DNA from: Anaerolineales bacterium UBA3082
GTDB lineage: Bacteria; Chloroflexota; Anaerolineae; UBA7937
DNA: 64,000 nucleotides
Direction: 5' to 3'
NCBI GenBank assembly: GCA_002366595.1
Contig: DFBK01000011.1
Span: forward strand, 13,540 to 77,539
The notes below the pieces were generated by a model. That model had not been told where the DNA came from. It searched no databases and saw only the letters and a list, made by a program, of their open reading frames with translations. This document shows, piece after piece, positions 45,407 through 64,000 of this stretch. Within the stretch, counting starts at the first letter, position 1; each line of letters begins with the position of its first letter. Both the position numbers and the translations under genes were made by a program.

Positions 45407-46612
45407 TCAGCCGTCGATCCGCTGGATGACCCCCTGCTCGCGCATCACCCGCTCTGCCTCTTCCAGGTACTCTTTCGTGCCCCGCTGCTTACGGATCCAG
45501 GCAATATACTCCACCACGCTCTGCTCCACTGGGATGGTGGGCTCCCATCCCAGGACGCGAAGTTTGGAGATGTCCGACACGGTGTGGCGGGTGTCTCCGA
45601 GCCGGAACTCGCCGGGAATGAGGGGCTCCAGATCGCTGTCGAAGGCATCCAACATGATGCGGGCGAACTCCAGGACGGTGACCGCTCGGCCACCGCCCAC
45701 ATTGAAGACCTCAAAGTTGGCCCGGTCATCTTCCAAGACTAAGAGGTTAGCCCGGGCGACGTCACAGACATTAACGTAGTCGCGCAGTTGTTGGCCATCC
45801 TCATAGATGATGGGGGGCAGGCCATGGAGCAGGCGGAGAGCGAAGCGGCGAGCGATGCCAGAGTAGGCGTTGTAGAAGGAGTTGCGGGGCCCCTGCACGT
45901 AGGTGTAGCGCATGCAGACCGTAGGGATACCGTAGCGCCGGCCCAGCCGATCGGCCAGCAGTTCGATGGCGTACTTGGAGATGCCATAGGCAGTACCAGG
46001 GCTGACCGTGTCTTCGTCAATCAACACCGGCTGCATGACCCCACCACAGTCGGGGCAATGGATTTCCCAGTCGCCGCGTTTCAATTGTTCCAATGGGCGT
46101 GGGGCAGGGATGTGGATGGCGGATGACAGAAGATGGAAGGTGGAAGAATGGAGCGCGGCCAGTTGTTCATGGACGGTGGGCGGGTTGATGCCGCCGGCGC
46201 AGGTGGGGCAGAGATACCGACCCTCACCACACACCGCCTGGGACGAGGCGAAGGTGATCTTTTGCACAGGGTAGCGCTCCCGGTTGGAGACAATGAGCTC
46301 GAAGAGGAGAGCAGCGCTCTCTGTGTTGGTATGAATAAAGGTGGAGAAATCGGGCATGTAGTCCTGGTAGGCAGCCAGGTGAAAGACGTAGTCCACACCC
46401 CGGAGCGCCCGGCTCAGATCATCTTGGTTCACCACGTCGCCCTGGATGAACTCAGCCTCTTTCGGCATGTAGGAGGGCTTGCCTCTAGGGTGTACCCGGG
46501 GTTGCAGGTTGTCCAGGATGCGGACACGATAGCCCTTTTCCAGCAGCAGATCAACCGTATGGGAGCCGATGAAACCAGCCCCGCCGGTCACAAGCACTTT
46601 TGGTGATGGCAT
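45407..46612 (-). CDS. Extended-SDR NAD-dependent epimerase/dehydratase with ~50-aa four-cysteine (zinc-ribbon-like) insertion
   Basis: 'KVLVTGGAGFIGSHTVDLLLEKGYRV' is the TGGAGFIG motif. The catalytic Ser region is 'FASSQAVCGEG', and Y-x3-K is 'YGISK'. About 70 residues separate the catalytic Ser and Tyr, versus ~25 in typical extended SDRs. The insert contains 'CGEGRYLCPTCAGG' and 'CPDCGGV'. Confidence 0.8.
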   Translation of the reverse strand: MPSPKVLVTGGAGFIGSHTVDLLLEKGYRVRILDNLQPRVHPRGKPSYMPKEAEFIQGDVVNQDDLSRALRGVDYVFHLAAYQDYMPDFSTFIHTNTESAALLFELIVSNRERYPVQKITFASSQAVCGEGRYLCPTCAGGINPPTVHEQLAALHSSTFHLLSSAIHIPAPRPLEQLKRGDWEIHCPDCGGVMQPVLIDEDTVSPGTAYGISKYAIELLADRLGRRYGIPTVCMRYTYVQGPRNSFYNAYSGIARRFALRLLHGLPPIIYEDGQQLRDYVNVCDVARANLLVLEDDRANFEVFNVGGGRAVTVLEFARIMLDAFDSDLEPLIPGEFRLGDTRHTVSDISKLRVLGWEPTIPVEQSVVEYIAWIRKQRGTKEYLEEAERVMREQGVIQRIDG

Positions 46613-46700
46613 TTAGATACCATATAGGTGGTAGTACCTCGTGACGGAGAGCGTGGGATATGCAAATATCTACAGCCAGCCGTCGGCCGTCGGGCACGGG

Positions 46701-47366
46701 CTAATAGTTGCTGCCCGACAGCACATACCAAGCCGCACCGAAGAGGAGTTTGATATCAAGCCAGAGGGACCAGTTATCAATGTACTCCAGGTCAAGTTTG
46801 ATCCACTCTTTGAACTCTTTGGGCTTGCCTCGGACGTGCCAGAGGCAAATCATGCCGGGGGTGACGCTGAGTTTGCGCCGTTGCCACTCTTCAAAATGTT
46901 CCCACTCCGCAGGACCGACTGGGCGGGGGCCGACTAGGCTCATGTCGCCTTTGAGGACGCTCCAGAGTTGGGGCAGTTCATCCAGGCTGAACTTGCGTAA
47001 GACGCGGCCCACGGGCGTAACCCGCGGGTCATTTTTTAGTTTGAAGGTGGGGCCGTTCCTCTCGTTGTATTGCCAGAGGTCTTTCTTCAGTCCGTCGGCG
47101 TTGACGACCATGGTACGGAGTTTGTAGCCGGTGAATCTTTTGCCGCCTTTTCCAATCACAACCCATTGATAGAGAACAGGACCAGGTGAGGTAATCTTGA
47201 TAACTGCGCCGATAGCGAGCAGAAGCGGAGTTAAGATAACCAACGACATGGCAGAAATACCCACATCAAGTATCCGTTTCACACCCAATTGCCATCGAGA
47301 AGCAAGCAGACGTGTCTGACCAAGATGCCTCAGGGGCATTTTCTCTGGAGACACATCATGCAGCAT
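46701..47366 (-). CDS. Small monotopic phosphoglycosyltransferase (PglC/WcaJ-C-terminal-like sugar transferase, Bac_transf)
   Basis: 'KRILDVGISAMSLVILTPLLLAIGAVIKITSPGPVLYQWVVIGKGGKRFTGYKLRTMVVNAD...DELPQLWSVLKGDMSLVGPRP' is the complete Bac_transf signature in a 221-aa protein. Confidence 0.9.
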   Translation of the reverse strand: MLHDVSPEKMPLRHLGQTRLLASRWQLGVKRILDVGISAMSLVILTPLLLAIGAVIKITSPGPVLYQWVVIGKGGKRFTGYKLRTMVVNADGLKKDLWQYNERNGPTFKLKNDPRVTPVGRVLRKFSLDELPQLWSVLKGDMSLVGPRPVGPAEWEHFEEWQRRKLSVTPGMICLWHVRGKPKEFKEWIKLDLEYIDNWSLWLDIKLLFGAAWYVLSGSNY

Positions 47367-48588
47367 GCTGCCGCTCCTTCCGCTTTTTCTCTGTTACACC
47401 ACCTTGACCTACGTTATCTTGTTGATGCAGGATCTTGTGATAGAACTTCTCTAACTGAGTAGTGAGCATTTCCCACGAAAGTTGCTCTTCTGCTATCCGC
47501 CTGGCATTGGAGCCCATTTCCTCCCGCAAGCCTTGATCTTCCAGGAGAGATAGCGTTGCTCTGGCAAAGCCTTGAGGATTATCATTGGCCAACAAGCCGA
47601 TATTGTGCTCTCTGAACAACACCGATACATCACCCACCGGACAGGTTATGATTGGTCTGCCTACGGCAAGGTAATCGTTTATCCTTGACGGCCACCTCGC
47701 TTGGTTACTAGTAGTGTTGCAGAGAGGAAGCATTAGTATGTCACAAGCGGCGAGATATCTAACCAAATTCTCGTAATCGACGTAACCGGTTTCTATCACG
47801 GCGGTAGCGCTAATTTCGTGTAGCGCGATATTTGCTCTATGATTGCCAATCATAATCAACTTGCAGTCGCTATGACGCTTATGAATAACCGCGAAGGCAT
47901 TTAAGAGGAGTGCAGCGTCCTTCGGCTGCAATACCCCCAAATGGCCGAGTAAAGGAGCCTCGAGAGGGAGGCCGAGGGCCCGTCGCGCCTCGAACTGGTC
48001 TAGTGGTCTGATCCGCTCAACGTCTGAACCTTGAGGAATCCTCATGATGGTGCTTTCATTCACCTGCAGGGAGAGCGCGCGCTGATAGAGCGCTTGACTG
48101 ATCACTGTAGTGCCATCTGCATACTTGCGAAAGGCTTCCTCGAAAAAGGTTTCTATCGGAGCTAGCATGCGCCACAGCAGTTGATTTGGTCGCTCATAGA
48201 TTGTCCCACCTCTGCCCCACCAGTCCGCCCAATCCAATACGAGTTTGCTTTGCTGCATGGTTTTGTGGTAAAGCGCCGGAAGAATGACCGCAGGTCGTGA
48301 ATCGAACGCATGAACAAGGTCGAAAGACCGATCATGAACATATGCTATGCGATTCAGCGTGTCCCAAGGATCCCAACCTGATCGGGTGACTCCCCAAAGG
48401 AGGTCAGGCGTCTCAAACACCTTTAGGCCTTCAATGACCTTCTCCCTAAACCCGTAGCGCAAAGTAGGAGAGATTGTCAGTAGCGTGACCCGATGCCCTC
48501 GCCGCGCTAGGTGTCGACCGAAGTGATAGGCTCGAAAGAAGGTACCACCGCGCCAGGCAACATTGTGGTTGAGCATCAAGATGCGCAT
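47356..48588 (-). CDS. Glycosyltransferase family 4
   Basis: 'MRILMLNHNVAWRGGTFFRAYHFGRHLARRGHRVTLLT' is a GT4 N-domain. The C-terminal domain has 'LLGHLGVLQPKDAALLLNAF' and 'PLCNTTSNQARWPSRINDYLAVGRPIITCPVGD'. Start taken at the internal Met abutting the upstream stop; the longest ORF extends to 48681. Confidence 0.8.
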   Translation of the reverse strand: MRILMLNHNVAWRGGTFFRAYHFGRHLARRGHRVTLLTISPTLRYGFREKVIEGLKVFETPDLLWGVTRSGWDPWDTLNRIAYVHDRSFDLVHAFDSRPAVILPALYHKTMQQSKLVLDWADWWGRGGTIYERPNQLLWRMLAPIETFFEEAFRKYADGTTVISQALYQRALSLQVNESTIMRIPQGSDVERIRPLDQFEARRALGLPLEAPLLGHLGVLQPKDAALLLNAFAVIHKRHSDCKLIMIGNHRANIALHEISATAVIETGYVDYENLVRYLAACDILMLPLCNTTSNQARWPSRINDYLAVGRPIITCPVGDVSVLFREHNIGLLANDNPQGFARATLSLLEDQGLREEMGSNARRIAEEQLSWEMLTTQLEKFYHKILHQQDNVGQGGVTEKKRKERQHAA

Positions 48589-48589
48589 A

Positions 48590-49759
48590 TCACGCTCGCG
48601 CTGCTTCTTCCAGAATCTCGAGAGTGCGGGCAGCGCTTCGTTTCCAAGTGTAATCTTTCGCCCTCTGTCGTCCACGCACAATCAAGCTCTGGTGCAAGGA
48701 TCGATCATGCAGTACACGTTCCATGCCATCGGCAATAGAGTCCTCGTCAAGTGGATCCACCAACACGGCGGCGTCTCCGGCCAATTCGGCCATGCTGCCG
48801 CTATTTGAAGTCACGACCGGACAGCCGCAGGCCATAGCTTCCAAAGCGGGATATCCGAAGGTCTCGTAGAGCGATGGGATCACCGCCAAATCAGCGCCCA
48901 AGTAGGTGGCTGCTGCCAAGTGATGATCCAGCCTATCAGTAAATACCACATCCTCTAGCACACCGGCCTGCTTGGCTACCATTCGCAGTTCATCAAATGA
49001 AACGCTGATCTCGCTGCCCACCAGAAGTAGGACATGGCGCAGGTTTGTGCGTCGTTTCAACAAGCCGAAAGCACGAATTAAGCGAGCGTGATTCTTGTAG
49101 CCATAGGTTGACGATACATACAAGATGTACGGTCGGCCTGCGGTTAGTTCAGCGCCCACTCGTCGCTCCGGGGCATCCTGCGGCACCTCTGCCAGCCTCC
49201 AGATATCCCATGAAAGTCCATGCGGCACAATACTTACTTTCTCTGCTGGCACTCCCGTCCAGTGCACAAGATCACGCTTGGAATGTTCCGTAAAGATGAT
49301 GACACTTACCGCTTTTTTCAGAGACAATGGCAACATGTAGCGCAGGTAGGCCCCGCGCAATCGCCCATAAGCCTCTGGCATTTCGTAGAACTGAAGGAAT
49401 TGCACTGCCAGCACCACGGGGGTCTTGGTTAGCAAAGGCGCTACTGTTGCAGTAGCAAAGAATACATCCAGCCGTTGACTGGCAATAGCAGCAGCCAACC
49501 CAGTTTGCTGGTAGAGAACACGCGGTGGGCGACTAACCGGAACGCCGGGGAGCCTCACTATTTCGACGTTCGACGGAATTGTCTCCAGCACTGGGTCTGC
49601 CCAAGCTGGCGTAAATAGAATGAATTGATGCTGAGGGCCTTGGATGACAAACTCTGTCAACAGTGATTGTAGATACACTCGCATTCCGCCCGGTCCCTGC
49701 CGGCTTGTCGCTTCTCCAGGCGAGATATTGTCTATGCCAATGCGTAGAGAACGGCTCAT
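48590..49759 (-). CDS. Glycosyltransferase family 4
   Basis: 'YILYVSSTYGYKNHARLIRAF' and the 'PSLYETFGYPALEAMACGCPVVTSNSGSMAELAGDAAVLVDP' Glycos_transf_1 core (E-x7-E). Confidence 0.85.
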   Translation of the reverse strand: MSRSLRIGIDNISPGEATSRQGPGGMRVYLQSLLTEFVIQGPQHQFILFTPAWADPVLETIPSNVEIVRLPGVPVSRPPRVLYQQTGLAAAIASQRLDVFFATATVAPLLTKTPVVLAVQFLQFYEMPEAYGRLRGAYLRYMLPLSLKKAVSVIIFTEHSKRDLVHWTGVPAEKVSIVPHGLSWDIWRLAEVPQDAPERRVGAELTAGRPYILYVSSTYGYKNHARLIRAFGLLKRRTNLRHVLLLVGSEISVSFDELRMVAKQAGVLEDVVFTDRLDHHLAAATYLGADLAVIPSLYETFGYPALEAMACGCPVVTSNSGSMAELAGDAAVLVDPLDEDSIADGMERVLHDRSLHQSLIVRGRQRAKDYTWKRSAARTLEILEEAARA

Positions 49760-51509
49760 CGCTTACGCAACAAGAATGAGCCTAAGCTGAGGTACTCTAG
49801 GCCGGAGTTGGAGAACACGTGCAAGGCGTCAGCGACATTGCACACCACTGGCTCCCCATGTAAGTTATACGAAGTGTTGAGCACCGCGCCAATTCCGGTG
49901 AGTTTTTCGAACTGCTTGATCAGCGCGTAATACGCTGGGTTCCACCGCTCTTCGACAATCTGCGGCCGCAGTGTCATATCATATGAGTGCATCGCCGCTC
50001 GCAGTTCGCGCTTTGCTCGAGCGGTGGAATGGAACGCCAAGATCATGTAAGGCGCTGGGACATTCTTTGGGTTGATCAGGTAATCATGTGCTCGTTCAGC
50101 CAAGATGCTCGGTGCGAATGGCATCCAAAAGTCGCGGCTCTTGATCTGGTCATTGATCACCCGTACGATATCAGGGTTAGATGGATGAGCCAGAATGCTG
50201 CAGTTGCCAAGTGCCCGTGCGCCCCATTCCATCCGCCCGTCGCGACGGGCCACGACTTTTCCTTCCCTAGCAGTTGTGCTACGTGTTGGATCATGTCGCC
50301 CGGTTTCTCGATGATGTATTGCGCAGCCAGGTTATGATCGCGTATGTAACGCTCGATGTCCGCGTCGGTATACTGGGGCCCCCAGTACAAATCGCGAATG
50401 GATTCGCCCTCCCAGGGGAGACCTTGGCGCTCGCAACATTGTTTATAGCCGTAATATGCCGCACCAATTGCGCCGCTTTCGTCGCCACAGCTTGGGAAGA
50501 TGAATAACTCCTCCACCTCGGGCATTTCCATCACGCACATATTCGCTTTGACATTCATGAATACGCCACCAGACAGGACGACCGTCCGGATCCCGGTTGC
50601 GGCAATGGCATTCTGGACCAACTTGACGATCAGCTCCTCAATTAACCGTTGAATCGCCCCAGCAATGGAGTCGAACCGGTGTCCCCTCAGCCGCTCTTGG
50701 AGATAATACGGGACCAATTGGCTGCGCACCTTCACACGCAACGAGAGAGTGTCGTCAACCAAGCCTATGAGTTCAGCAAAAACAGGGTAGGTCTTATCTA
50801 TGTTGTACTCGCTGCAGTATGGCGCCAGCCCCATCACCTTGTATTCGTGCTCAAGTGGTTTCATCCCCATGTACTCAGTAATCTGGGAATACAAGTGTCC
50901 CAGTGAGTTGGTATCATCAATCTGTGCAATCCGGGTTAGCATGCTGTCTTTGGCGACACTTATCGTTCCGGAGAGACCGTCGCCTTCACCGTCAAGCGTG
51001 ATGACAAGCGATGGTTTGCCAATGAACGGGCTGCCATACCAACAATAAGCATGGGCAGTGTGGTGATCCACAAACAGAATGCGATCCTCCGGAACGGGCA
51101 ACACCTCCAGAAGGGGTTTCACCCTGTCACCGGAGGCCAGAGCAGTGCCGATTCTCTGGACTGCACGCCGACCCGCTGTGCCAACTGGCCTCAACGACGG
51201 TAGCCGGTATTCGAGGCGCCTCATCCATACTCGAGGAGTGTGAGAGATATGGGAGAGACCTCGCTTGAACTCGCTTCTGACCATGGATCCCAGGAACGCC
51301 CGGTGACCCAGGAAACAAACTAAATCCACGTCGCCTGGGCCAATGGCTGAAGTCTCTATCAGCCACTTGACAGCGCGCCTGGGGAAACCAGTTTCGTTCT
51401 TGATCCGCGTGAACCGCTCCTCGCTCACGCAGGCGATCACCCTCCCATCCTGGAGAAGGCACGCAGTCGCCAGGTGACCATCATTGATTCCGAGAATGTA
51501 CATGTTCAA
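49756..51509 (-). pseudogene. Carbamoyltransferase (NodU/CmcH family) interrupted by a single frameshift
   Basis: The N-terminal ORF (50157-51509) reads 'MNMYILGINDGHLATACLLQDGRVIACVSEERFTRIKNETGFPRRAV', the NodU/CmcH N-domain. The C-terminal ORF (49756-50253) reads 'RRDGRMEWGARALGNCSILAHPSNPD...', the conserved EFGPRALGNRSIL region. The two frames overlap over ~100 bp. Near 50262-50270 one frame gives 'LGKEKSWP' and the adjacent frame gives 'GKVVARRDG', consistent with a 1-nt indel. Confidence 0.75.
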
Positions 51510-51575
51510 TCTTCTCTCGAATGTTACCTGTAATTACCAGGTGATTGCCGTCCCCATCCGAATACACTCGCCCGT

Positions 51576-53330
51576 TCATTTCGCATCGGTCGGTTGGTCA
51601 CACTCACGAGCCCTCGTTTCAGAGGTGTCTACCTTGACGATGTAATACTTAATCGTGCCAATATTGACTTGATATACGATCTCGGTAATCGGGATTCCTC
51701 TCCACATTGATGAGGTCATCGGCTGAATCTTATTGTTGTCAGCAAGATATTGAATTCCCTGCAATTGCACGAAGCACGCTAACTGATTGCGCTCCAAATA
51801 CCTCAGAAACTCATAGCTATTGACCAGCCCATCCAGGTTTGTGATGCGCCGATGGCTGAAGTAGCCCAACACGCCTGCGTTCCAGGAACCTACCACAGAG
51901 TCAGGGGGGAGGTTCTTATCAATCCATTGGGCCGCCAGATAATTGGCCTCCGATGCCTCCACGTTAGGATATACGGGCCGCTGAGCATCAGAAAGCCAGA
52001 GGGGCAAGATAATCACAGCCAATAGTCCTACAGCGCGACCAGCCCAAACGGCTGCCGTGTTGCTTTTGAGCCAACATTTTGCGAATTGCCACAATAGGCG
52101 TAGAGTGGACGCTCCTAGAAAAGTCAAGACCATATATTCAGGCACCAGCCACCACCATGTCCCACTAGTAACTAGGAATGATGGGAACAAGATGACGTAG
52201 GCTCCAAAGTGCAAAAGAGTAAACAGGAATAGAAGCCAATTGCGCCTAAAGCTCTTTGATTCTCTTCTAACTATCTCTGAGGACGACTGCAATCTGCGTG
52301 CACCATAAACCAAAACACTCGCTGCAATCAACAAACTTGAGATCAAGGCCAAAAGGAGCATCCATCCACCGCTGCTTGGATTAGTGAGAGCAGCGTAGAA
52401 TGTTGGAAACAACAGTCTCACCCCTCCACTCATGAACGAACGAGGCATAGCGAATGTCCCAAATAAATGTCCAACTAGATATAGGGTCGCTGCGACTGCC
52501 ATCTGGAGAGCAAAGAGTAAATAATTCATACCTCCAAGTTCGCGGATAAGCATCTCAGTTTCCAGAAGTTTTGCCGCCCCACTAACTGGTAGTAAATGAC
52601 CGAAGTAGACTTGGTTAATGAGAAGATAAGGCACAATCACTACTGCACAAGGAGCAACGATCAGTCCGGAGACCCGGATGCGTTCTGTCCATCCTTTGGG
52701 CCATGTCTTCCATAATAGAGTGATCCACACTATCGGCATCAACAGGTACGCGTCCGTTCGCGCCAGAAAAGTAAATCCCACTAGCAACCCGAGCAGAATC
52801 AACTGCTTATGCTTTGTGGAAACACCATTCGCACGAAACTCTTTTACGTAGTAATAGCTCGTAGCGCCCAGTAACATTGCATACAGAGGGCTCTCCATCC
52901 CCGCAAGCATCTTGGTAACTAGTCCGGGGGAGAACAACCAGATCCAAGCTACAACAATGGCAATGCGTTTGCCGCCAACAATGCGCGCCAGGGCATACAG
53001 GAACCAAGCAGACGCTATATGAATAAGGGCATTTGTCACTGCAAAGATACGCACTTGGGTGGTTGGATCGGAGACTCCAAACCATGTAGACAGCTTCGTC
53101 ACTGCAAGAATAGTTAGGAACCATAGAGGTTGAACCCCGTTCGTCAAATTCACACCATCAAAGGTCAATCTTCCACTGTTCAAGTAATTTCGCCCGATCT
53201 GAAAGTAATAGAAGGCGTCGTCAATGCGCATCAAGTAGGAGCGGTCTTGCATCCAGATGAAGACAAGATAGATCACCAGGGCGACAGCCATACCAAATTG
53301 AACCAGGAAATCGTCCTTGCGACTTGTCAT
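51576..53330 (-). CDS. Polytopic membrane protein, GT-C-like putative glycosyltransferase (584 aa from internal start)
   Basis: ~13 hydrophobic helices. An early loop carries 'DDAFYYFQIGRNYLNSGRLTFDG', a DD/DE-type GT-C loop-1-like motif. Start chosen at 'MTSRKDD' so that it abuts the upstream GT4 stop; the longest ORF extends to 53573. Confidence 0.5.
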   Translation of the reverse strand: MTSRKDDFLVQFGMAVALVIYLVFIWMQDRSYLMRIDDAFYYFQIGRNYLNSGRLTFDGVNLTNGVQPLWFLTILAVTKLSTWFGVSDPTTQVRIFAVTNALIHIASAWFLYALARIVGGKRIAIVVAWIWLFSPGLVTKMLAGMESPLYAMLLGATSYYYVKEFRANGVSTKHKQLILLGLLVGFTFLARTDAYLLMPIVWITLLWKTWPKGWTERIRVSGLIVAPCAVVIVPYLLINQVYFGHLLPVSGAAKLLETEMLIRELGGMNYLLFALQMAVAATLYLVGHLFGTFAMPRSFMSGGVRLLFPTFYAALTNPSSGGWMLLLALISSLLIAASVLVYGARRLQSSSEIVRRESKSFRRNWLLFLFTLLHFGAYVILFPSFLVTSGTWWWLVPEYMVLTFLGASTLRLLWQFAKCWLKSNTAAVWAGRAVGLLAVIILPLWLSDAQRPVYPNVEASEANYLAAQWIDKNLPPDSVVGSWNAGVLGYFSHRRITNLDGLVNSYEFLRYLERNQLACFVQLQGIQYLADNNKIQPMTSSMWRGIPITEIVYQVNIGTIKYYIVKVDTSETRARECDQPTDAK

Positions 53331-53331
53331 A

Positions 53332-56478: not shown

Positions 56479-56619
56479 TCTGGCGAAATGGATGAAGATG
56501 TTCCCTGCTATGTGGGTCTCCACCTTCGCCTCTTTCCATTCTCTGCGGCGGAGAGCACTTTCTGGAAGGTTCTTCTCCAGACAGAGAAGTTCGGCTCTAC
56601 CACGCCTTCTCCTGTCCAT
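56047..56619 (-). pseudogene. Truncated SAM-methyltransferase paralog (lacks motif I), remnant
   Basis: The 190-aa ORF's C-terminal 150 aa are near-identical to the full MT at 57788-58621 ('CIEVIEHLAARQDALREMWRVLRPHG.LL.SVPLLPPP.YHLDHVVQGFSREEI.HELELAGFSIIKEDVALLRWSRWVLRMCHR.GLPLPLLFICHLENRV'). It lacks the N-terminal 'LDVGCGGG' SAM-binding motif. Confidence 0.7.
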
Positions 56620-56676: not shown

Positions 56677-57651
56677 TCAGCCATAAGTCCGCGCCCGCTG
56701 CTTATTGAGCCAGAGCCAGTATCGCAGACATCCCTCTTCGAGGCCGATGTCTGGTTTCCATCCAAGTACTTGTTGGGCCAGGGTGATGTCTAGTACGTTG
56801 ATAGGGACATCAAAAGGCCGACTTGCGCTGTAGTTCACCACCAACTTCCGTCCCATAACTCCTTCGACCACTTCGAGCAGATCATTAAGGCTGATGCCTC
56901 TCCCGCTACCTACGTTCATTAGTCGGGTGGAGGGCATCCGCTCAAGCAGCTTACAAACTGCTACACCCAAATCGTCAACGTGGAAGTAGTCTCGGATAAC
57001 GCTGCCGTCTCCCCAGATCTCAAAGGGCTGTTCTGTTAGAGCTGCGTTCAACATAGCTGCTATTACCCCTTGCCTGCGCCCAAGATCTTGACGCTCACCA
57101 TAGGGATTGGCACAACGCAGGATGTAGTATCTCACCCCGTGCAGATGGTAAAAAAGGTACAAATACTTCTCAACAGCAAGATTTGTGATACCATATGAGC
57201 AGACGGGGCTTGTGGGATGGCTCTCCGATATTGGATTACTCTGTGGTATACCATAGACTGTGCCCCCGGACGAGATGTAGATGATCACGCTGTTTCCCAG
57301 CTTTGTTGCTTCTTCGAGCAACCCCAGGGCTCCTACTATCGTAGTCTGAACATCTTGCACAGGGTCAAGATTGGACTCAGCAGGCAAGCTTGTACCGATG
57401 CAATGAATCACAACTTCAACGCTTTGCAGAGCAGCTCTAAGGGCCTTGCGATCAAGGAAATCACCCACAACGAAGTCAATCTGTTGATCAATTTCTCGCC
57501 GTCCCGTAAGCGGTTTTGCTGTGCGACTGAATACCCTTACAGGGTAACCCTGACACACCAGTTCCTCAGCAATGTGAGATCCGATGAAGCCGGCTCCCAA
57601 GACCAGACAGTTCTGCTTCTTTGGCTGTCTAGTATCAGCCTCGGAAGTCAT
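56677..57651 (-). CDS. NAD-dependent epimerase/dehydratase (extended SDR)
   Basis: 'NCLVLGAGFIGSHIAEELVCQGYPVRVFSR' Rossmann motif, 'YISSGGTVYG' and 'YGITNLAVEKY' (Y-x3-K). Confidence 0.8.
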   Translation of the reverse strand: MTSEADTRQPKKQNCLVLGAGFIGSHIAEELVCQGYPVRVFSRTAKPLTGRREIDQQIDFVVGDFLDRKALRAALQSVEVVIHCIGTSLPAESNLDPVQDVQTTIVGALGLLEEATKLGNSVIIYISSGGTVYGIPQSNPISESHPTSPVCSYGITNLAVEKYLYLFYHLHGVRYYILRCANPYGERQDLGRRQGVIAAMLNAALTEQPFEIWGDGSVIRDYFHVDDLGVAVCKLLERMPSTRLMNVGSGRGISLNDLLEVVEGVMGRKLVVNYSASRPFDVPINVLDITLAQQVLGWKPDIGLEEGCLRYWLWLNKQRARTYG

Positions 57652-57714: not shown

Positions 57715-58218
57715 CCCATCTACAATACCTCGATGTTCACTAACAACCGCTCAAATCGTGTCCAGTTTTAGGGGGGCGCTTCACGCGCTATTGCACCAAA
57801 TCGGACTTTTGAACGAGCAATAGTATATCTAACGGTTTCTGTTCAATCCTATTCGATCGTTTAGAGAAAACCCGGTTCTCCAGATGGCAGATGAATAGTA
57901 GGGGAAGAGGGAGTCCGGTTCTGTGGCACATCCTTAGAACCCACCGGCTCCATCGAAGAAGAGCTACGTCCTCCTTGATAATTGAAAACCCTGCTAACTC
58001 AAGCTCGTGAAGTATCTCTTCCCTAGAGAAGCCTTGCACCACATGATCCAGATGATAGAAAGGGGGCGGTAAAAGCGGAACACTTACCAGAAGCTTGCCA
58101 TGGGGACGAAGAACCCGCCACATTTCTCGCAGTGCATCCTGGCGTGCCGCCAAATGTTCGATAACCTCTATGCACAGCAGCGTATCAAACGATTGGTCTG
58201 CAAAAGGCAACATCTCCG
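57715..58218. repeat. Direct repeat copy B (partner of 55975-56478)
   Basis: See copy A. This copy is the 3' half of the intact methyltransferase gene plus the downstream spacer. Confidence 0.9.
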
Positions 58219-58621
58219 CCGACGCTTGCGCGACAAATGCCTTCGAAAGACGTTTTGCACAAAGTCGCCACTGCGTAAGTTCTACATGTTTCCTGTCGAA
58301 ATCTATCCCTCCTACCCAACTAGAGCGGGAAGCAAGCGTTTCAAGCATATACATGCCCCCGCCGCACCCAACATCAAGACATCGCCCCAAATCTTCCTGC
58401 GGTAACAACCGCTCGACGATGGGCATCTGAGCCGCCCCTCGAACCGTGTTGCCATTTGCCAGGAATAAACGTCCCATTACCTTGGCCCACTCACCTATGC
58501 GCCAACGTAGGGTGATCTTGGGCTGGCGTCGTGCTATTGAATCATCTTGTTTGAAACCCCGTTGTGTCATCGAAGGCTTACACCTTTCATACTGGCGAGA
58601 GTAGACTGGTGAGCAATGCAC
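57788..58621 (-). CDS. Class I SAM-dependent methyltransferase
   Basis: Motif I 'CLDVGCGGGMYMLETLA', acidic post-I 'GIDFD', and motif II/III 'FDTLLCIEVIEHL'. Confidence 0.8.
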   Translation of the reverse strand: MHCSPVYSRQYERCKPSMTQRGFKQDDSIARRQPKITLRWRIGEWAKVMGRLFLANGNTVRGAAQMPIVERLLPQEDLGRCLDVGCGGGMYMLETLASRSSWVGGIDFDRKHVELTQWRLCAKRLSKAFVAQASAEMLPFADQSFDTLLCIEVIEHLAARQDALREMWRVLRPHGKLLVSVPLLPPPFYHLDHVVQGFSREEILHELELAGFSIIKEDVALLRWSRWVLRMCHRTGLPLPLLFICHLENRVFSKRSNRIEQKPLDILLLVQKSDLVQ

Positions 58622-58646: not shown

Positions 58647-60491
58647 TCACTCACTACACTGGCCAACAAAACCAGTGGGTAACCGCGCGAACGCACCTAA
58701 ACCTGGACACGTCTTTCCCAGTAGTCTTTGCCAATCTGCGACCGAGAACCTGGTAGTCTCGACTCGTCTGAGATGCATCTGCTGAAACCAGACATCACCT
58801 ATGCCATAATTCATCACCGCGATATAGGGATCAAGTGGCGTTAGCTCGGGATTCAAAATCAAAAAACTAGCCCTCACCCAGTCCCCATCCGTTGCTGCCA
58901 ACTGATAAAAAACAGTACTGTTGTTTCGCTTATCCACCACGGTAATGGCAGCTTTTTGTTGGCCCGCAACATCCGTCCGGTAGCCAAAAGTAAGCAGATT
59001 AATAGACCCTGGGGCTAACTGAACCGGTGCACGAAACACAGCGCGCGGGAAGTGGATGTTTCCGGACACATCCCGGGTCCAAACCCCCTGGATACGCACA
59101 GAAGGGAGGCCGTTGAGAACCTCTGCATAGTCTAGTCCCCCAACGAAGAATCGGGCTTGTTGAAAACTGTCGTCAGGCCAGATTAACCACTGCCAAGCAT
59201 CTGGTTGATCTTGTTGATCCCTTCTTGCTCCGAAGGCACCATTTGCCAGTATATCTTGCCCTAACTGTATTTGAATCTGTGCCTGCCCCAAGAGAGAAGT
59301 CAGACGGGTGGATTCGTTGTACTCTTTGTCAAATTCTGCCTGCAATGAGAACGCCGAAGCCTGATCTCCGGTCGATTGATAAGCCTGAACCAGCAATTCA
59401 GTTCCTCGAAGGTCTGCCGGGCGTAGCTGGTGATAGCGTTCAAGCAGTTCGGCGGCACGCTTCCAATGTCCCACTCTTCCCAGCACTTCGCCAGCCACTA
59501 GATAAATCTGAGCATTTTCGGCAGCAACTTCCATGGATGAGGACACGGTTGAATCAACCTTCGTAGCGCTCGGTTCAGGCGAAAGCTTTAAGTTGAGCAC
59601 GTGCCAGATGGCACTGTTGGGAAATCGTGCCAGCATCTCGACAACAAGGTTCTGTGCGTCCTGTCGCCGTCCGCGCCAATCTAATAAGGAAGTTAGCTTA
59701 TAAACATCGTTCTCACCCCATATTCGCCGATCAAGCAGAGCCAGTGCCACGCTACCCCAGTCTTCTGGTGCCTCCAGGGTGGAAGGCAGAGTGAAATACC
59801 TGAGTTCAGTGCGCAGCGCCTCCGCCTCTTCGGTCTTACCCCTGAGGCTTAGAACCTGTTCGAGCCGATACAGACTCTGTAAATTGTTGTACTTGATCTC
59901 CAGCGATTTTCTGAAAACATCCTCTGCTTTAGCAAGTTGTCCTTGTTCCAGGTACTGCTTGCCACCCATCACGAGGCTGGACAGTAGCCGTTCCCGGGCC
60001 CAAGGCCATTTTTCTGGCAACCGATCCCAGAAAATCTCGTACCAATAGGCCGCAGAAGGATAATTAGCCACGACAAATTGATGGTTGGCGATTGCTAGGG
60101 CACTAAAAAGATCCAAATCGGACGCTTTCATCTGGTTAGCGGTCAGCCAGTCTTCCATGTCACGATCTTGTCGAATGGCGTAAGACAACACCTGTGCGTC
60201 CTTGACCCTTATGCCCTCAGGATCTACTATCCTGGCAGCCGACAAAACGTTAACAACTCGCAATAGGCCACCGCTATGTACATCACTTGCCAGCCCTTGT
60301 CCGATGAAAAACATATGCTCGTCAGGAGCCGGGGGACGTACAGCGATGTAATCCATAAGGGTGTGCAGACTATCTATCCGCAATGCGTTGACGAACCCAA
60401 GGCGCACGATAGGCCTGACGTTCAACAGAACCAAGATGCCTATAGCGATAAACATTAAGCGTACACGAACAGATAGATACTTACTCCGCAT
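58647..60491 (-). CDS. Membrane-anchored TPR-repeat protein (614 aa)
   Basis: N-terminal TM ('LMFIAIGILVLLNV') followed by multiple TPR-like hairpins ('YLEQGQLAKAEDVFRKSLEIKYNNLQSLYRLEQVLSLRGKTEEAEAL', 'AQIYLVAGEVLGRVGHWKRAAELLERYHQL', 'LLVQAYQSTGDQASAFSL'). The C-terminal ~200 aa form a beta-rich domain. Confidence 0.7.
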   Translation of the reverse strand: MRSKYLSVRVRLMFIAIGILVLLNVRPIVRLGFVNALRIDSLHTLMDYIAVRPPAPDEHMFFIGQGLASDVHSGGLLRVVNVLSAARIVDPEGIRVKDAQVLSYAIRQDRDMEDWLTANQMKASDLDLFSALAIANHQFVVANYPSAAYWYEIFWDRLPEKWPWARERLLSSLVMGGKQYLEQGQLAKAEDVFRKSLEIKYNNLQSLYRLEQVLSLRGKTEEAEALRTELRYFTLPSTLEAPEDWGSVALALLDRRIWGENDVYKLTSLLDWRGRRQDAQNLVVEMLARFPNSAIWHVLNLKLSPEPSATKVDSTVSSSMEVAAENAQIYLVAGEVLGRVGHWKRAAELLERYHQLRPADLRGTELLVQAYQSTGDQASAFSLQAEFDKEYNESTRLTSLLGQAQIQIQLGQDILANGAFGARRDQQDQPDAWQWLIWPDDSFQQARFFVGGLDYAEVLNGLPSVRIQGVWTRDVSGNIHFPRAVFRAPVQLAPGSINLLTFGYRTDVAGQQKAAITVVDKRNNSTVFYQLAATDGDWVRASFLILNPELTPLDPYIAVMNYGIGDVWFQQMHLRRVETTRFSVADWQRLLGKTCPGLGAFARLPTGFVGQCSE

Positions 60492-61638
60492 CGCGAATTG
60501 AGTGTCCTAAGAGCCAGTTGGCGCAGTCTTCAATGTTTTGGACCGATGGGTTGAGTTTGTACGTAATAGACCTCGTACCAGCAAATGAATTGTATAGATT
60601 CAACAAAGAGAAAGGCGCAACAGCCTTAGCATACCGCTGCAGACGCCTGTAGACCAAGTAAGCCCGCACTCGAAGAGGAAGCTTGCGCAACTTCTCTTCA
60701 GAAGCCGCTTCCTCCACGCCTAGCTCCAACCTTCGTTTTCGCCAAAGGCGTAACTGGTAATCACAGCCTGCGTAGTACTCTCTCAAATTTTTTAGTTCAT
60801 ATGGACAGTGGTTTAAGTACCGCAGCTTAACTCTCTGTAATGTTGCATAATGTCCGTTAACAAAGAAGTTGCCCGCCAACGGTAGCATAATTCCCCTCAT
60901 CACTTCCGGGTCTTTCAGCACCGCGTAGCTCTGCTTCCGTGAATCTGTGAAAATATCACTCACCCCGATTGATGTAGAACCTCTGCCCAACAGAACGAGT
61001 TGCTTACGAATTTCAACACATCTGGAGCAGTGCAGCAGGGCAGAGGCGAGACAATAGTAATCTGGGTGAATAGGTTGATACGGGCCTTCTTCTTCAGATA
61101 TCTGTTCCAGGAGATGCTTGGCATAGCAAACTGGCTGTGTTGGGAAAGGAACGTCGAGTGTGGTGTATATGCTCTCAAGCAACGGCGCAGTATCCAGCAA
61201 GCATGTCGTGGCGTCACCTGTCTGAATCACCAAAGTGTTCCTTTGCCGCTTGACAAAGAAGTCGTTAGGATAATATACGGCATTGTAAGAAGACAGGAGG
61301 GACGGCCCGTTCCATTCTCGGATGGCTTTTGCATAGCTTTCTAAACAGTCAGGGAGCAAGAAGTCATCATCTCCGATACAAATCAGGTATTGCCCTGTAG
61401 CCTGGCGGTATGCATTATTCCAGTTGGCAACGCCCGGAACATCACAGCCAGTATTCACATACTTGATCCGCCGATCTGCGAAGCCGGTCACCATCGAACC
61501 CGTTCCATCAGAAGAATTATTGTCAGAAATCACAAGTTCAAAATCATGCCAGGTCTGCTGCAGAACAGACCGGATGGCAAACTGAAGCAAGTGTGCTCTA
61601 TTCTTTGTAGGGATCAACATCGAGAAGGTGGGTTCCAT
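60481..61638 (-). CDS. Glycosyltransferase family 2
   Basis: 'FSMLIPTKNRAHLLQFAIRSVLQQTWHDFELVISDNNSSDGT' and DxD 'ICIGDDDFLLPD'. Confidence 0.85.
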   Translation of the reverse strand: MEPTFSMLIPTKNRAHLLQFAIRSVLQQTWHDFELVISDNNSSDGTGSMVTGFADRRIKYVNTGCDVPGVANWNNAYRQATGQYLICIGDDDFLLPDCLESYAKAIREWNGPSLLSSYNAVYYPNDFFVKRQRNTLVIQTGDATTCLLDTAPLLESIYTTLDVPFPTQPVCYAKHLLEQISEEEGPYQPIHPDYYCLASALLHCSRCVEIRKQLVLLGRGSTSIGVSDIFTDSRKQSYAVLKDPEVMRGIMLPLAGNFFVNGHYATLQRVKLRYLNHCPYELKNLREYYAGCDYQLRLWRKRRLELGVEEAASEEKLRKLPLRVRAYLVYRRLQRYAKAVAPFSLLNLYNSFAGTRSITYKLNPSVQNIEDCANWLLGHSIRDAE

Positions 61639-61694
61639 AGGCTGTTGTAACTAACTTTCAGACAGGTTCACTTCCGGTTACACGGATGTTGTTG

Positions 61695-63074
61695 TCAAGT
61701 AGTGAGTTTCTGATCGATTGCGGCTCTACACATTAATGGATAGAGAATAGTAGCCGGAACCGATAGAAAGACAAAAGCAACCATGATGCCTACAACCCCC
61801 ATCTGCCGCCCCAGGCATATTGAAATCGGCACGACCAGAATGTTGGTCAGAACTCCCAACACAAGTTGGCCTCGTAATAAACCAAACCCATTGAGCACAA
61901 TCGAGTAGGTGCTGTTCCATACGTACATGATTGTCCATATAGCCATCATGACAACCAGACCCGTATTGTCAATCTGCTTTCCAGTCCATATCCATAACAA
62001 CGGTCGGTAGAAAGCTACCATGACCAAGCAGCCACCAGTCATCAGTGCCACGCTGGCCCAGGCCAGGCGGCGCATGGCAGATCTAGCCCAGGGCCAATCG
62101 CCAGCGGCCTGTGCGTCTGTGAACGCAGACCAGAAAGGCGTTATGATGGATAGGTGAAAACCAATTAACAAGAAGAACAACCGCTGCACCACATTGAAAT
62201 CTCCTGCCGCATCTAGGCCCAGCACTTGGCTGGTTATATAGGTGTTCGAATACATTCCAATTGCAGATAGCATCGAAAGAAGCCAAAACTGCAAGCCAAG
62301 GCCCGCCAGGTCGCGGATGCAGGCTACAAGCTCATTCCTGCCAATTTGGACCAGACGCCAGCCCCGACTTCTTTGAAAAACGATCAGTCCCGCTAATCCT
62401 GATAGCGTAAATGATCCGAAGAATACTGACGTAACCACGTAAAACGGAGCCCGGAGCGCAATCGCTAATGACACGAAGATCAAAGCTCCCAGTTTGGGCA
62501 ACGCATCAAACGGTGCATTCCAAAACGAACTCTGGTATGCAAAAAAACCGGCGCTGTATAGCTGTAAAGGAATAAGTAGCAAGATCAAGTTTGCAATGAC
62601 TGCCAGCCAGCAGACTCCCTGAGTCGCGAGCCTCAAGTCGGCGATATTGAAGACGGATGTCCAGGGGATGATTGGAGACAGGGTTGTCAGAAGAATACCG
62701 ACGAGCACTACGAGGAAAAGAAGTGTGTATAGGGTCGAAAAGAAGTACTGGCGGGCTGTCTGGTCTTTGGATGCGTCGCCGGCCCATGCGGCCAGCTTGT
62801 TCCGTAGCCCGTTACTTACTCCAAAATCCAGGCTTCCACTTAGAGCCATGAAAGAGGTGAGCACGGCGTACAACCCAAATTCCTCACGTGAGAAGTAGCG
62901 GGTGATCATGCCCAACATGAGGAAATTGGCCACCATGCCCAAAATGCGGCCCCCAACCATCGCCCCAGACCCAGCAACTGCATTGCGTAATCTTATATTC
63001 TGAGATAAAGTGGCCTTGAGAGCGAAGCCGAACTGATTCGTCATAAACAACTTCCTATCAGCGCTGTGTATCAT
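61695..63074 (-). CDS. wzx: Oligosaccharide flippase (Wzx, MOP superfamily polysaccharide biosynthesis protein)
   Basis: ~12-14 TM helices. The N-terminal 'ALKATLSQNIRLRNAVAGSGAMVGGRILGMVANFLMLGMITRYFSREEFGLYAVLTSFMAL' is the Polysacc_synt family beginning. The likely start is the internal 'MTNQFGF' (~63044). Confidence 0.8.
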   Translation of the reverse strand: MIHSADRKLFMTNQFGFALKATLSQNIRLRNAVAGSGAMVGGRILGMVANFLMLGMITRYFSREEFGLYAVLTSFMALSGSLDFGVSNGLRNKLAAWAGDASKDQTARQYFFSTLYTLLFLVVLVGILLTTLSPIIPWTSVFNIADLRLATQGVCWLAVIANLILLLIPLQLYSAGFFAYQSSFWNAPFDALPKLGALIFVSLAIALRAPFYVVTSVFFGSFTLSGLAGLIVFQRSRGWRLVQIGRNELVACIRDLAGLGLQFWLLSMLSAIGMYSNTYITSQVLGLDAAGDFNVVQRLFFLLIGFHLSIITPFWSAFTDAQAAGDWPWARSAMRRLAWASVALMTGGCLVMVAFYRPLLWIWTGKQIDNTGLVVMMAIWTIMYVWNSTYSIVLNGFGLLRGQLVLGVLTNILVVPISICLGRQMGVVGIMVAFVFLSVPATILYPLMCRAAIDQKLTT

Positions 63075-63313
63075 TCTTACTTAGAGTTTCCGAGCGGCTG
63101 AGCGCGTGCTAATCACTTTGTTTCTCTTTGCCATGGACAAAACAAGGATGGAGTCGAGCGTGCAACGCAACGTTCGGACGGCGTTCTAGGCCAGCACGCA
63201 CACACTGACCAGCAGATAAGCAGGTTCTTGTGAGCTGGACTCATAGCCCTCGCTTGTATATCATATTTCTCAAAGCGTCATCCCAGCTGTACCGGCTATC
63301 CACCATCAGTGGG

Positions 63314-64000
63314 CTATCTTGGGGGACAGTCCTCGGCCAACTCTCGAATTTGATAGAGCAGTATCAACTCATTAGTACACTTGAGCTCGTCTCGAATTTG
63401 CCGCTCGATCTCTCGCTGGAACGCCCGAGATGAGATCAGAATTGGTTCTGATCTGCCCTTAGAATCGGCTGGAGCAATAATTGGGATCCCATTCAACTGC
63501 TTGCCCTGATAGTGAGAATTAGAATCCACAAAAGCGCAGATGTTTGACTCGGTCAGCTTACTTGTAGCTAATAGCCTTAACGTATGTGTGCCAACTCCCC
63601 ACACAATAATGGGTCTACCACTGGCTGCAAGGTCATCAATCATTTGGCGTATGCGGTCGTCAACTTTCTGCGATTGGCGGATATATTCGACCAAGCCTTG
63701 CTCTGTCTCCAGATCCCGTACAGGATGTGCCGGGCGCAAATCGTCCTTCTTGAATATGGCGGAGATGACTGGCATCGTTGTACCATAACTCTGCTCACGT
63801 GCGTCTTGCCGACAGAAAACCTGAACAAAGCCATTTGACTGCATCAGATTGGCAAGAGAAGTAGCGGAAAAGAAGTTAATATGCTCGGTGCTGAATTGTT
63901 GAAAAGGGGCATCCGGCCAGCGCGCAAACTGAGTGGCATCTGGCACTTCCACAAACATCAGCCCTTCTGTGGAGAGCATGTAACGCGTTTTGGCCAGCGC
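63314..64000 (-). CDS. SAM-dependent methyltransferase with C-methyltransferase-like C-terminal domain (partial; 5' end beyond window)
   Basis: The ORF remains open to the window edge. 'GLMFVEVPDATQF' is a post-motif III MT region. The C-terminal 'GRPIIVWGVGTHTLRLLATSKL...ICAFVDSNSHYQGKQLNGIPII' resembles the Rossmann-like C-terminal domain of sugar C-methyltransferases. Confidence 0.6.
   Translation of the reverse strand, partial: ALAKTRYMLSTEGLMFVEVPDATQFARWPDAPFQQFSTEHINFFSATSLANLMQSNGFVQVFCRQDAREQSYGTTMPVISAIFKKDDLRPAHPVRDLETEQGLVEYIRQSQKVDDRIRQMIDDLAASGRPIIVWGVGTHTLRLLATSKLTESNICAFVDSNSHYQGKQLNGIPIIAPADSKGRSEPILISSRAFQREIERQIRDELKCTNELILLYQIRELAEDCPPR

Follow-up and report, generated by a model that had tools for sequence, protein, structure and literature searches.

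We report that the surface-glycan locus of Anaerolineales bacterium UBA3082, an Anaerolineae-like member of the Chloroflexota, is a mosaic of DNA segments that differ in composition. The window analysed is a stretch of 64,000 nucleotides (assembly GCA_002366595.1, contig DFBK01000011.1, positions 13,540 to 77,539 of the forward strand); its coordinates, used throughout, were carried outward on the source contig so that -7,040 to 82,341 (~89 kb) was covered. Surface-glycan genes occupy ~83 kb of this DNA on one strand (minus), extending from 76 kb to -7 kb or further. Within them lies a core of 23.5 kb (47.37-70.9 kb, 16.6 kb of it inside the window) that is foreign to the host by composition, by synonymous codons and by tetranucleotide signature alike. 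This block was probably acquired horizontally, and the reading that we consider likely is that of a mosaic locus whose strain-specific, foreign core arrived by cassette replacement, not by element-mediated integration. The blocks to which the evidence refers are as follows, PGT standing for polyprenyl-phosphate glycosylphosphotransferase, GT for glycosyltransferase and TPP for thiamine pyrophosphate.

1 to 38,357, minus strand: resident glycan part, with a Wzm/Wzt ABC module, large PGT, WecG, GH5, GT1/GT2/GT4, WzyA, Wzz/BY-kinase and FAD oxidoreductase (Pfam)
38,322 to 46,612, minus strand: heptose-type nucleotide-sugar cassette, 58-61% GC, the high side of the GC step (Pfam, NCBIfam); members TAL, GmhB-like, GmhA-like, HddA-like kinase, NTP transferase, GFO/MocA oxidoreductase, SDR, nucleotide-sugar dehydrogenase and zinc-ribbon epimerase/dehydratase
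46,613 to 46,700, no strand: 88-bp intergenic gap within a conserved PGT-epimerase unit, not a junction
46,701 to 47,366, minus strand: small PGT of the Bac_transf family (PF02397, 198.8 bits)
64,000 to ~70.9 kb, minus strand: continuation of the core beyond the window, with MT21 (FkbM-type methyltransferase), RmlD-like reductase, TPP enzyme, NT5C-like gene and NeuB/cupin fusion
~71 to ~76.1 kb, minus strand: right shoulder, with RfbH, RfbG, RfbF, an epimerase and a NusG paralogue; 54-57% GC over 71-75 kb
77.6 to 82.2 kb, opposite strand: non-glycan flank, with HD, MBL-fold, PilZ, cupin and two alcohol dehydrogenase (ADH) genes; 57-59% GC, with 0.66-0.735 GC at third codon positions (GC3)

Composition, codon usage and tetranucleotide signature

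Sliding windows and direct counts give 54.1% GC for the whole window, 55.2% for 1-46,600 and 51.1% for 46,601-64,000. Cut into 60-nucleotide lines, the two sides have means of 0.552 (standard deviation 0.060, n=776) and 0.511 (standard deviation 0.062, n=289), a difference with Welch t = 9.7 and p = 2e-20. An earlier note on this DNA, which relied on sampled lines, had described an abrupt fall at ~46.6 kb from 60-63% to 42-50% GC. The compositional step is real and far beyond chance, yet smaller than first described. The high figure holds for 43.1-46.6 kb (60.9%) and nowhere else on the left, where GC content ranges over 51-58%, with 55.2% for 600 bp near 4.5 kb, one of the places sampled; the right side measures 47-54% per kb. 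The contrast was exaggerated because single 60-nucleotide lines scatter widely (standard deviation ~6 points): among the left lines, 24% reach at least 60% GC while 22% have 50% or less.

Locally, GC content does fall by ~8 points at 46.6 kb, from the 60.9% just given to 53.0% over 46.6-50.1 kb. The strongest single change-point found by maximum-likelihood binary segmentation, however, is at 51,479-51,480 (55.0% to 50.0% GC), in the gap between a carbamoyltransferase and a PMT_2-like gene (51,479-51,576, no strand). Its log-likelihood ratio (LLR) was 99 when the window alone was segmented; the extended sequence gave 160, against 140 for position 46,650, while 200 shuffles of 1-kb blocks gave a permutation ceiling of 57.5. 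To the right, the low-GC stretch continues at 43-52% GC per kb over 63-71 kb and returns to 54-57% past 71 kb, so that it is closed on both sides.

Codon usage and tetranucleotides both set the core apart from the host. The 19 core genes have a GC3 of 0.539, with 0.41 at second positions (GC2) and 50.2% GC overall. The corresponding values are 0.635, 0.41 and 54.5% for the 31 genes of the resident part (-7 to 38.36 kb) and 0.699, 0.42 and 57.8% for six flanking non-glycan genes, and the core differs from the two together at p = 7e-8 (Mann-Whitney U test). GC3 is 0.676 and GC2 0.42 for the ten genes of the heptose cassette and small PGT. Since GC3 shifts while GC2 stays, the difference is not an amino-acid effect. 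Synonymous codons were also scored by a likelihood ratio, computed leave-one-out for each long open reading frame (ORF). Up to the zinc-ribbon epimerase and the small PGT inclusive, all long ORFs score as resident-like apart from GmhB, which is negative, and TAL, which lies near zero. GT4d, the first core gene, is slightly negative (-0.014) and GT4e clearly low-block-like (-0.054); both halves of the carbamoyltransferase are near zero, and the genes from the PMT_2-like protein through the NeuB/cupin fusion are low-block-like, strongly so for the PMT_2-like protein, GT4f and the Wzy_C protein. In the right shoulder values close to zero were obtained for RfbH and RfbF, and a mildly low-block-like one for RfbG.

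Tetranucleotide profiles, normalised for mononucleotides and strand-symmetric, offer a view of the host itself. One signature is common to the resident left part and the right flank far from it (r = 0.87), and ordinary DNA of related genomes correlates with the resident part at r = 0.88-0.95. Over 1-38,357 and 77,500-82,341 this signature avoids AGCT, ACGT, CGCG and TGCA (observed/expected 0.29, 0.35, 0.40 and 0.54) and is rich in the polypurine/polypyrimidine tetramers CCTC, AGAG, AGGA and AAGG (observed/expected 1.7-1.9); it is an unusually distinctive genome signature, common to related genomes. The stretch from 38.3 to 77 kb, core included, shows neither the avoidance nor the excess. Against an independent host reference of ~20 kb, made up of the right flank and non-glycan DNA of relatives, the correlation (r_host) is 0.92 for the resident part, 0.61 for the heptose cassette with PGT (38,358-47,366), 0.42 for the core and 0.58 for the rfb-NusG segment. 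In tiles of 4.5 kb it holds at 0.82-0.87 in all nine tiles from -7 to 33.5 kb, drops to 0.69, 0.67 and 0.51 in the next three, to 47 kb, and stays at 0.25-0.44 over 47-74 kb.

Might low GC3 have arisen in place, in membrane protein and GT genes with low expression or relaxed selection on codons? Such an account would fit the observation that in four other loci (L012, L013, L017, L021) the heptose cassette also lies 3-7 GC points above the upstream GT region. The resident part, however, contains the same kinds of protein (GT4, GT2, Wzy, ABC-2, PMT_2) at a GC3 of 0.635 and an r_host of 0.92, and in the core soluble enzymes (epimerase, TPP enzyme, methyltransferases) are just as low. Neither the lost palindrome avoidance nor the lost polypurine bias is explained by expression level, and the core is absent from the related locus L153. 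Evolution without transfer is thus very unlikely in our judgement.

The left edge of the core

The earlier note had placed the boundary in the 88-bp gap between the zinc-ribbon epimerase and the small PGT. The gap exists at 46,613-46,700 as it had been described, but it lies inside a conserved unit. L153, from JGI 3300009034, is colinear with window 47,201-38,378 through PGT, epimerase, dehydrogenase, SDR, GFO, NTP transferase, kinase, GmhA/B and TAL, with 80.5-85.6% nucleotide and 74-93% amino-acid identity, and its positions 1772-3553 (window 47,201-45,429) align straight across the gap at 80.5% nucleotide identity. A consensus scan reported no promoter-like or terminator-like site in the gap. 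Upstream of the L153 PGT stand GT2 and methyltransferase-GT2 genes, with no counterpart of GT4d or GT4e. The stop of GT4d overlaps the start of the PGT, and the comparative breakpoint falls there, at ~47.2-47.37 kb, 0.7 kb to the right of the gap.

The small PGT is 80% identical to its L153 orthologue (amino acids), and 10 of 71 related loci have a small PGT immediately upstream of the epimerase. At 53.2% its GC content is below that of the epimerase (60.3%), and it has a GC3 of 0.62 and resident-like synonymous codon usage. Because of the colinearity across the gap, the recurrent adjacency and the resident-like codons, we count the PGT as a member of the conserved cassette rather than of the foreign core. 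The low-GC genes that the earlier note had listed were all confirmed by Pfam, the PGT being the one that belongs elsewhere. The NCBIfam model EPS_sugtrans covers only its C-terminal catalytic domain and scores under the full-length cut-off.

These results bear on the scenario as originally drawn, in which one recent Wzx/Wzy cassette, PGT included, begins at the 88-bp gap on a resident locus of 60-63% GC. The local fall exactly at 46.6 kb, an LLR at 46,650 that is near the optimum and the lower GC content of the PGT all speak for it. It is opposed by the alignment across the gap and most of the PGT and by the conserved PGT-epimerase adjacency with resident-like codons. Moreover, resident DNA has 54.5% GC and the flank 57.8%, so no resident locus of such high GC is present; the heptose cassette, which supplied the high values, itself deviates from the host signature and is absent beside the FAD gene in three relatives, and the low-GC block is mosaic and reaches 70.9 kb. 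We therefore regard this version as very unlikely. The fall at 46.6 kb is the edge of an unusually GC-rich conserved cassette, with the foreign core starting one gene on.

The heptose cassette and the 38,357 deletion

Three loci related to the window through the FAD gene, L091, L092/93 and L094 (90, 85 and 69% amino-acid identity), share 36.3-38.36 kb and have other glycan genes upstream; L092/93 also shares WzyA and LPG_synthase_TM. The nucleotide homology of L091, L092 and L094 ends exactly at 38,357. L153 explains this break. Beyond 38,378 its alignment to the window is interrupted for 3.6 kb and resumes for 68 bp that correspond to window 38,355-38,288. L153 belongs to the same clade, since over the SIS-GTPase/PGM segment it has 83-89% identity with L091, L092 and L094. 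Because L153 keeps 3.6 kb between TAL and the shared 68 bp, the window is the one that carries a deletion:

38,357 to 38,378, no strand: deletion junction, at which 3.6 kb of L153 (SIS-GTPase, PGM and an epimerase fragment, from TAL to a 69-amino-acid ORF/FAD) are missing in the window

Window TAL has a 21-amino-acid C-terminal extension relative to homologues at least 87% identical, and this extension runs across 38,357/38,378 into resident DNA (38,322-38,388).

An interim reading, a 38-kb island bounded on the left at 38,357, was based on the three relatives and the signature; it was dropped once L153 showed a shared cassette and PGT and a deletion. In its full form it posits a single lineage-specific island from 38.36 to 76.5 kb, heptose cassette included, between the FAD gene and the HD-domain flank. 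Several observations agree with it: the homology of three relatives stops at exactly 38,357, that of the flank relatives returns at 76.5-77.5 kb, the signature is below that of the host across the entire stretch, and the cassette occurs across phyla at ~70% amino-acid identity. Yet a clade member has cassette and PGT colinear at 80-86% nucleotide identity, like the divergence of resident DNA; the L153 cassette adjoins the SIS-GTPase/PGM genes that flank FAD elsewhere, which makes the break a 3.6-kb deletion; and rfbFGH is common to L089 at 84% nucleotide identity. One island is accordingly an unlikely account. An older acquisition of the heptose cassette by the clade is possible; the orthologous cassette of L153 has an r_host of 0.57.

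The cassette recurs across phyla, with at least three of its five heptose genes in 41 of 80 related loci. It is found, often together with the small PGT, in Chloroflexota, Acidobacteriota, Actinomycetota, candidate phyla radiation bacteria and others, with epimerase identities of 53-77% (amino acids); in a scan of one genome per species the top epimerase match, at 77%, was a Chloroflexota metagenome-assembled genome. Higher GC content in the cassette than upstream is no general rule, the mean difference over 43 related loci being +0.002, and the difference of +3 to +7 points is confined to the four syntenic Chloroflexota loci L012, L013, L017 and L021. The product is presumably a modified GDP-heptose. 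Full-length (equivalog) NCBIfam matches of the cassette enzymes are all under curated cut-offs, so we claim generic functions only; the sole match over its cut-off is that of a generic nucleotide-sugar dehydrogenase subfamily, for UGDH.

The right edge, relatives and possible donors

At the right edge the part common to L089 is rfbFGH only (71,085-74,269, 84% nucleotide identity), after which its RfbH is followed directly by a TPP enzyme. On both sides of the core a relative has other genes, upstream of the PGT in L153 and past rfbH in L089. Further out, two relatives of the HD flank (L095, L096) share 77.5-82.3 kb at 87-89.5% nucleotide identity, and neither has an adjoining glycan super-locus; L095, like L092, comes from JGI 3300031898. 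Protein relatives of the flank at least 87% identical are labelled 'Anaerolineae bacterium' (the ADH relatives) or 'Chloroflexi bacterium'. Resident stretches are likewise matched in relatives, at 36.3-38.36 kb (80-88% nucleotide identity), 31.8-34.2 kb (79%) and GT4c (89%).

Core proteins stand apart when membership of clusters at 90% identity is considered. For the ten core and PGT proteins queried, no full-length relative at least 90% identical came from another strain, bar a 403-amino-acid GT4f variant on a 1.9-kb contig. The 614-amino-acid TPR protein and Wzx are singleton clusters, and GT2b is joined by just a 337-amino-acid variant. Relatives at least 90% identical from other strains are present for resident GT4a and MT11a and for FAD, TAL, RfbF, RfbG and a flank ADH. 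Against metagenomes the NeuB/cupin fusion (42.8% GC) had no match above 70% identity. The ten closest NeuB/cupin loci (60-70%, amino acids) have 34-50% GC, lower than host and block, and most include further genes of the NT5C-TPP-RmlD-MT21-C-methyltransferase series; many metagenome contigs repeat the order RfbF-G-H-NeuB/cupin-NT5C-TPP-(RmlD)-(methyltransferase). The proposal of horizontal acquisition is partly supported by the foreign composition, the dearth of close full-length relatives in other strains and, for the one core cassette whose homologues were searched, the NeuB/cupin loci in lower-GC contigs; what changes is the object, a mosaic block that extends to ~70.9 kb.

Independent assemblies

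The window corresponds to record 18,040-82,039 of a 400,331-bp ENA contig, ERZ778604 NODE_5, located by exact-protein look-ups, and identical pieces of it recur in JGI and Logan assemblies. Window and ERZ778604 contig differ at 18 positions in total, all at 56,031-56,354 within one copy of a 505-bp repeat. A metagenomic chimera, in which the glycan loci of two organisms were joined at a conserved gene, deserves consideration given that these are metagenome assemblies, that one repeat copy differs between them and that several contigs end at the 505-bp repeat. Set against this, the separately assembled window and ERZ778604 do not differ anywhere in 35.4-56.0 kb, a stretch spanning the junctions at 38.36, 47.37 and 51.5 kb, the 70.9-kb junction also occurs on SRR1313318 and SRR5324181 contigs, and the same contig has host-signature DNA at both sides. 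We consider an assembly artefact extremely unlikely.

How the core may have been exchanged

Under the cassette replacement that we favour, the left 38 kb, with its host oligonucleotide signature, would be resident. The heptose cassette and small PGT (38.4-47.37 kb), gene-for-gene common to at least one related genome, patchy, and of intermediate signature in both carriers, would form the left shoulder, and rfbFGH (71-74 kb), again common to a relative, the right one. Between them would lie the exchanged core of GTs, carbamoyltransferase, Wzy, Wzx, methyltransferases and a branched-sugar pathway. Recombination in or beside the conserved nucleotide-sugar genes at either end probably swapped the cassette, the incoming DNA having been put together from one or more lower-GC donors.

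Replacement by recombination in or near conserved end genes is proposed because mobile-element genes, tRNAs and junction repeats were not found. No integrase or transposase appeared in Pfam scans of all long window ORFs or among the called genes of the extensions; searches for tRNA genes and Rfam families gave nothing above background, and the same holds for promoter and terminator consensus sites. A comparison of the 38-kb and 75-77-kb junction zones revealed no direct repeats longer than 11 nucleotides.

A number of points weigh against our reading. The lack of integrase, transposase, tRNA and flanking repeats, within the Pfam and called-gene scans and the two zones compared, is among them. 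No donor of high nucleotide identity was found, so that only composition speaks for when and in which direction DNA was transferred. The host baseline comprises ~50 kb of the contig and ~15 kb of relatives' DNA and falls short of a whole genome. Heterogeneity within the core (carbamoyltransferase with GC3 0.65, NeuB/cupin with 42.8% GC) makes a single transfer unlikely. The clade-shared heptose cassette and rfbFGH also deviate (r = 0.58-0.61), so the signature alone is no proof of recent acquisition. Finally, each junction is covered by one relative, that at 47.37 kb by L153.

Genes of the core and their predicted roles

The core genes inside the window are:

47,356 to 49,759, minus strand: GT4d and GT4e, first core genes; 52.8% GC, GC3 0.55, r_host = 0.31 (Pfam)
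49,756 to 51,509, minus strand: O-carbamoyltransferase of the NodU/CmcH/TobZ type, split by a frameshift; 54.6% GC, GC3 0.65, r_host = 0.23
51,576 to 55,979, minus strand: PMT_2-like membrane protein (GT-C type), GT4f and Wzy_C protein; 48-52% GC, GC3 0.53-0.55
55,975 to 56,619, minus strand: truncated methyltransferase, 190-amino-acid ORF at 56,047-56,619; a C-terminal fragment without the N-terminal S-adenosylmethionine motif
56,677 to 57,651, minus strand: NAD-dependent epimerase/dehydratase (Pfam)
57,788 to 58,621, minus strand: full methyltransferase, holding repeat copy 2 (Pfam)
58,647 to 63,074, minus strand: membrane-anchored TPR protein (614 amino acids), GT2 and Wzx-type flippase (Pfam)
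63,314 to 64,000, minus strand: 3' part of a 440-amino-acid C-methyltransferase, cut by the window end

Its window part is itself a mosaic, with 52.8% GC in GT4d/e, 54.6% in the carbamoyltransferase and 49.5% in the rest. Decay and duplication in the right half of the window, which the earlier note had assigned to the low-GC part, do fall in the core in the form of the frameshifted carbamoyltransferase and the methyltransferase fragment. The carbamoyltransferase matches Carbam_trans_N (134 bits) and Carbam_trans_C (187 bits) in two overlapping frames. A single frameshift at ~50,248-50,276 separates the frames ...LLGKEK and VVARRDGRMEWGARALGN..., both halves being otherwise intact. The sequence is identical in the ERZ778604 assembly, and PDB relatives are GdmN and TobZ. 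The truncated methyltransferase covers Methyltransf_11 profile positions 39-95 only. It overlaps copy 1 (55,975-56,478) of a 505-bp direct repeat whose copy 2 (57,715-58,219) follows at a spacing of 1740-1741, the pair flanking the epimerase gene. The copies are 95.6% identical in the window and 99.2% in the ERZ778604 assembly; the difference could reflect variation between strains, gene conversion or a collapsed repeat. Two Logan contigs stop at or near the repeat.

Judged by protein families, a putative Wzx/Wzy-dependent gene set is present, with a predicted initiating PGT, a Wzx-type flippase, and GTs and nucleotide-sugar genes in one direction: the minus strand holds three GT4 genes, the GT2, the PMT_2-like gene, the heptose cassette and rfbFGH alike. 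The flippase (61,695-63,074) matches Polysacc_synt (PF01943) with 30.9 bits, a marginal score that does exceed the gathering threshold (cut-off 28.2). Its called start at 63,044 lies 30 nucleotides downstream of that of the longest ORF, and the exact 449-amino-acid protein is found on six contigs. The Wzy_C protein (54,540-55,979; PF04932) scores 39 bits against a cut-off of 31.7; as this family spans polymerases and O-antigen ligases, we treat the protein as polymerase-like, and it could be a ligase. GT2 matches Glycos_transf_2 with 80.8 bits, and the PMT_2 match, at 25 bits, is below cutoff.

In the pathway that these families suggest, the small PGT would prime polyprenyl phosphate, and GDP-heptose-derived and CDP-dideoxy/branched sugars would be joined by the GTs into a methyl-modified repeat unit; the carbamoyl step would be lost if the frameshift is real. 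Wzx would then flip the unit, Wzy would polymerise it, and chain length may be set by the resident Wzz/BY-kinase at 34.3 kb.

Other features of the locus

The genes from 63,314 to 74,081 (L086:8261-19028) form a recurrent cassette of RfbF, RfbG, RfbH, NeuB/cupin fusion, NT5C-like gene, TPP (acetolactate-synthase-like) enzyme, RmlD-like reductase, FkbM methyltransferase and C-methyltransferase. This RfbFGH-NeuB/cupin cassette is also found in more than 20 metagenome contigs (loci L097-L140), mostly of 26-47% GC. It resembles the logic of CDP-dideoxyhexose and yersiniose synthesis, to which the NeuB/cupin and NT5C-like genes are additional.

At the 5' end of the ~83-kb glycan run, at 75,630-76,118 (L086:6224-6712), stands an RfaH/UpxY-like NusG paralogue, with a response regulator just upstream. 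It scores 98.6 bits for RfaH and 65.6 bits for UpxY in NCBIfam, both below cut-off.

The resident part includes a second glycan system, dependent on an ABC transporter, its operon being oriented like that of the Wzx/Wzy system:

11,094 to 31,432, minus strand: ABC-dependent glycan system, with Wzt bearing Wzt_C, ABC-2 permease, large PGT with CoA_binding_3, WecG/TagA, GH5 and several GT1/GT2/GT4

Pfam finds glycan genes throughout this left side. A 134-nucleotide direct repeat of 89% identity occupies 20,099-20,232 and 20,386-20,519; one copy is intergenic, and the other lies within the 3' end of a 517-amino-acid ORF (20,332-21,885), which points to partial duplication in the resident part as well.

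Two groups of relatives show further features. In the rfbFGH relative (L088-L090), tyrosine integrases and HEPN/MNT and PIN/Phd toxin-antitoxin pairs lie upstream, and an IS3-family transposase lies within the glycan locus; none of these integrases, toxin-antitoxin pairs or IS3 transposase is found in the window genome. In L096 (GCA_964383935.1, CAYLIE010000015.1), positions 4,711-7,218 hold an inverted GT4c orthologue, 89% identical in nucleotides to window 30,138-31,600, only 0.4 kb from a match to 76,527-77,202 beside the HD flank. This arrangement points to large glycan-locus rearrangements among clade members.

Relation to known systems

The mosaic pattern has long been known from O-antigen and capsule loci and is in that sense ordinary; here it is found in an Anaerolineae-like genome. 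In Salmonella O-antigen clusters GC content is lowest for GT, wzx and wzy, ddh (= rfbFGH) is intermediate and flank-proximal sugar genes are near the genome average, and such clusters consist of GC-differing segments exchanged between strains via recombination in conserved end genes (PMC3715488). The present locus resembles the O-antigen region of Salmonella enterica and E. coli (rfb region, galF-gnd) in its putative Wzx/Wzy-dependent set with a lowest-GC GT/wzx/wzy centre, and in its sugar-pathway ends, here rfbF/G/H (= ddhA/B/C) and the heptose cassette. Its GC deficit, however, is ~4 points relative to the resident locus and ~8 relative to the flank, against 15-20 in Salmonella. It also differs in that the cluster lies within an ~83-kb multi-pathway locus and has a small single-domain PGT as primer, and in that no lipid A-core or O-antigen ligase context is evident in this Anaerolineae-like host, with no lipid A or core genes among the genes of the 89 kb covered. 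The Chloroflexota are generally described as lacking lipopolysaccharide. The label 'O-antigen', which the earlier note had used, can be applied to the locus as an analogy only.

Capsule loci, such as those between dexB and aliA in Streptococcus pneumoniae and the K loci of Klebsiella, have conserved flanks and regulatory genes around a serotype-specific GT/Wzy/Wzx centre that is swapped by homologous recombination, and pseudogenes and gene fragments are common in their variable parts. The locus described here likewise has a central GT/Wzy/Wzx cassette between conserved genes; its core is found in one strain, with few relatives (80-90% nucleotide identity in shared segments). With the UpxY capsule loci of Bacteroides and with RfaH-dependent operons it shares a NusG paralogue placed 5' in a very long polysaccharide operon whose genes all lie on one strand; unlike in those systems, all scores of the paralogue are below curated cut-offs, and its role is a prediction from sequence. 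Neither an ops/JUMPstart-like site nor an UpxZ partner came to light, no search having been aimed at them. Atypical composition and patchiness among relatives recall tRNA-linked, integrase-bearing genomic islands, from which the locus differs in having no integrase, transposase or tRNA in the window and its extensions and in having its junctions at gene boundaries within the operon.

More broadly, cassette replacement of the pathogen type may be a means by which uncultured Anaerolineae-like Chloroflexota vary their surface glycans, with whole sugar modules imported from distant low-GC donors, and the RfbFGH-NeuB/cupin-NT5C-like-TPP-reductase-methyltransferase module may make an undescribed branched or extended CDP-linked sugar; we offer this as a tentative idea that could well be wrong. 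A textbook pattern is now seen in a phylum in which the genetics of surface glycans has hardly been studied. Mosaic glycan loci, and probably exchange between lineages, reach environmental Chloroflexota, a finding of modest practical value, and GC steps within glycan loci should not be taken as junctions of resident and foreign DNA without comparative data. The two widespread sugar cassettes, heptose and RfbFGH-NeuB/cupin, provide leads for glycobiology.

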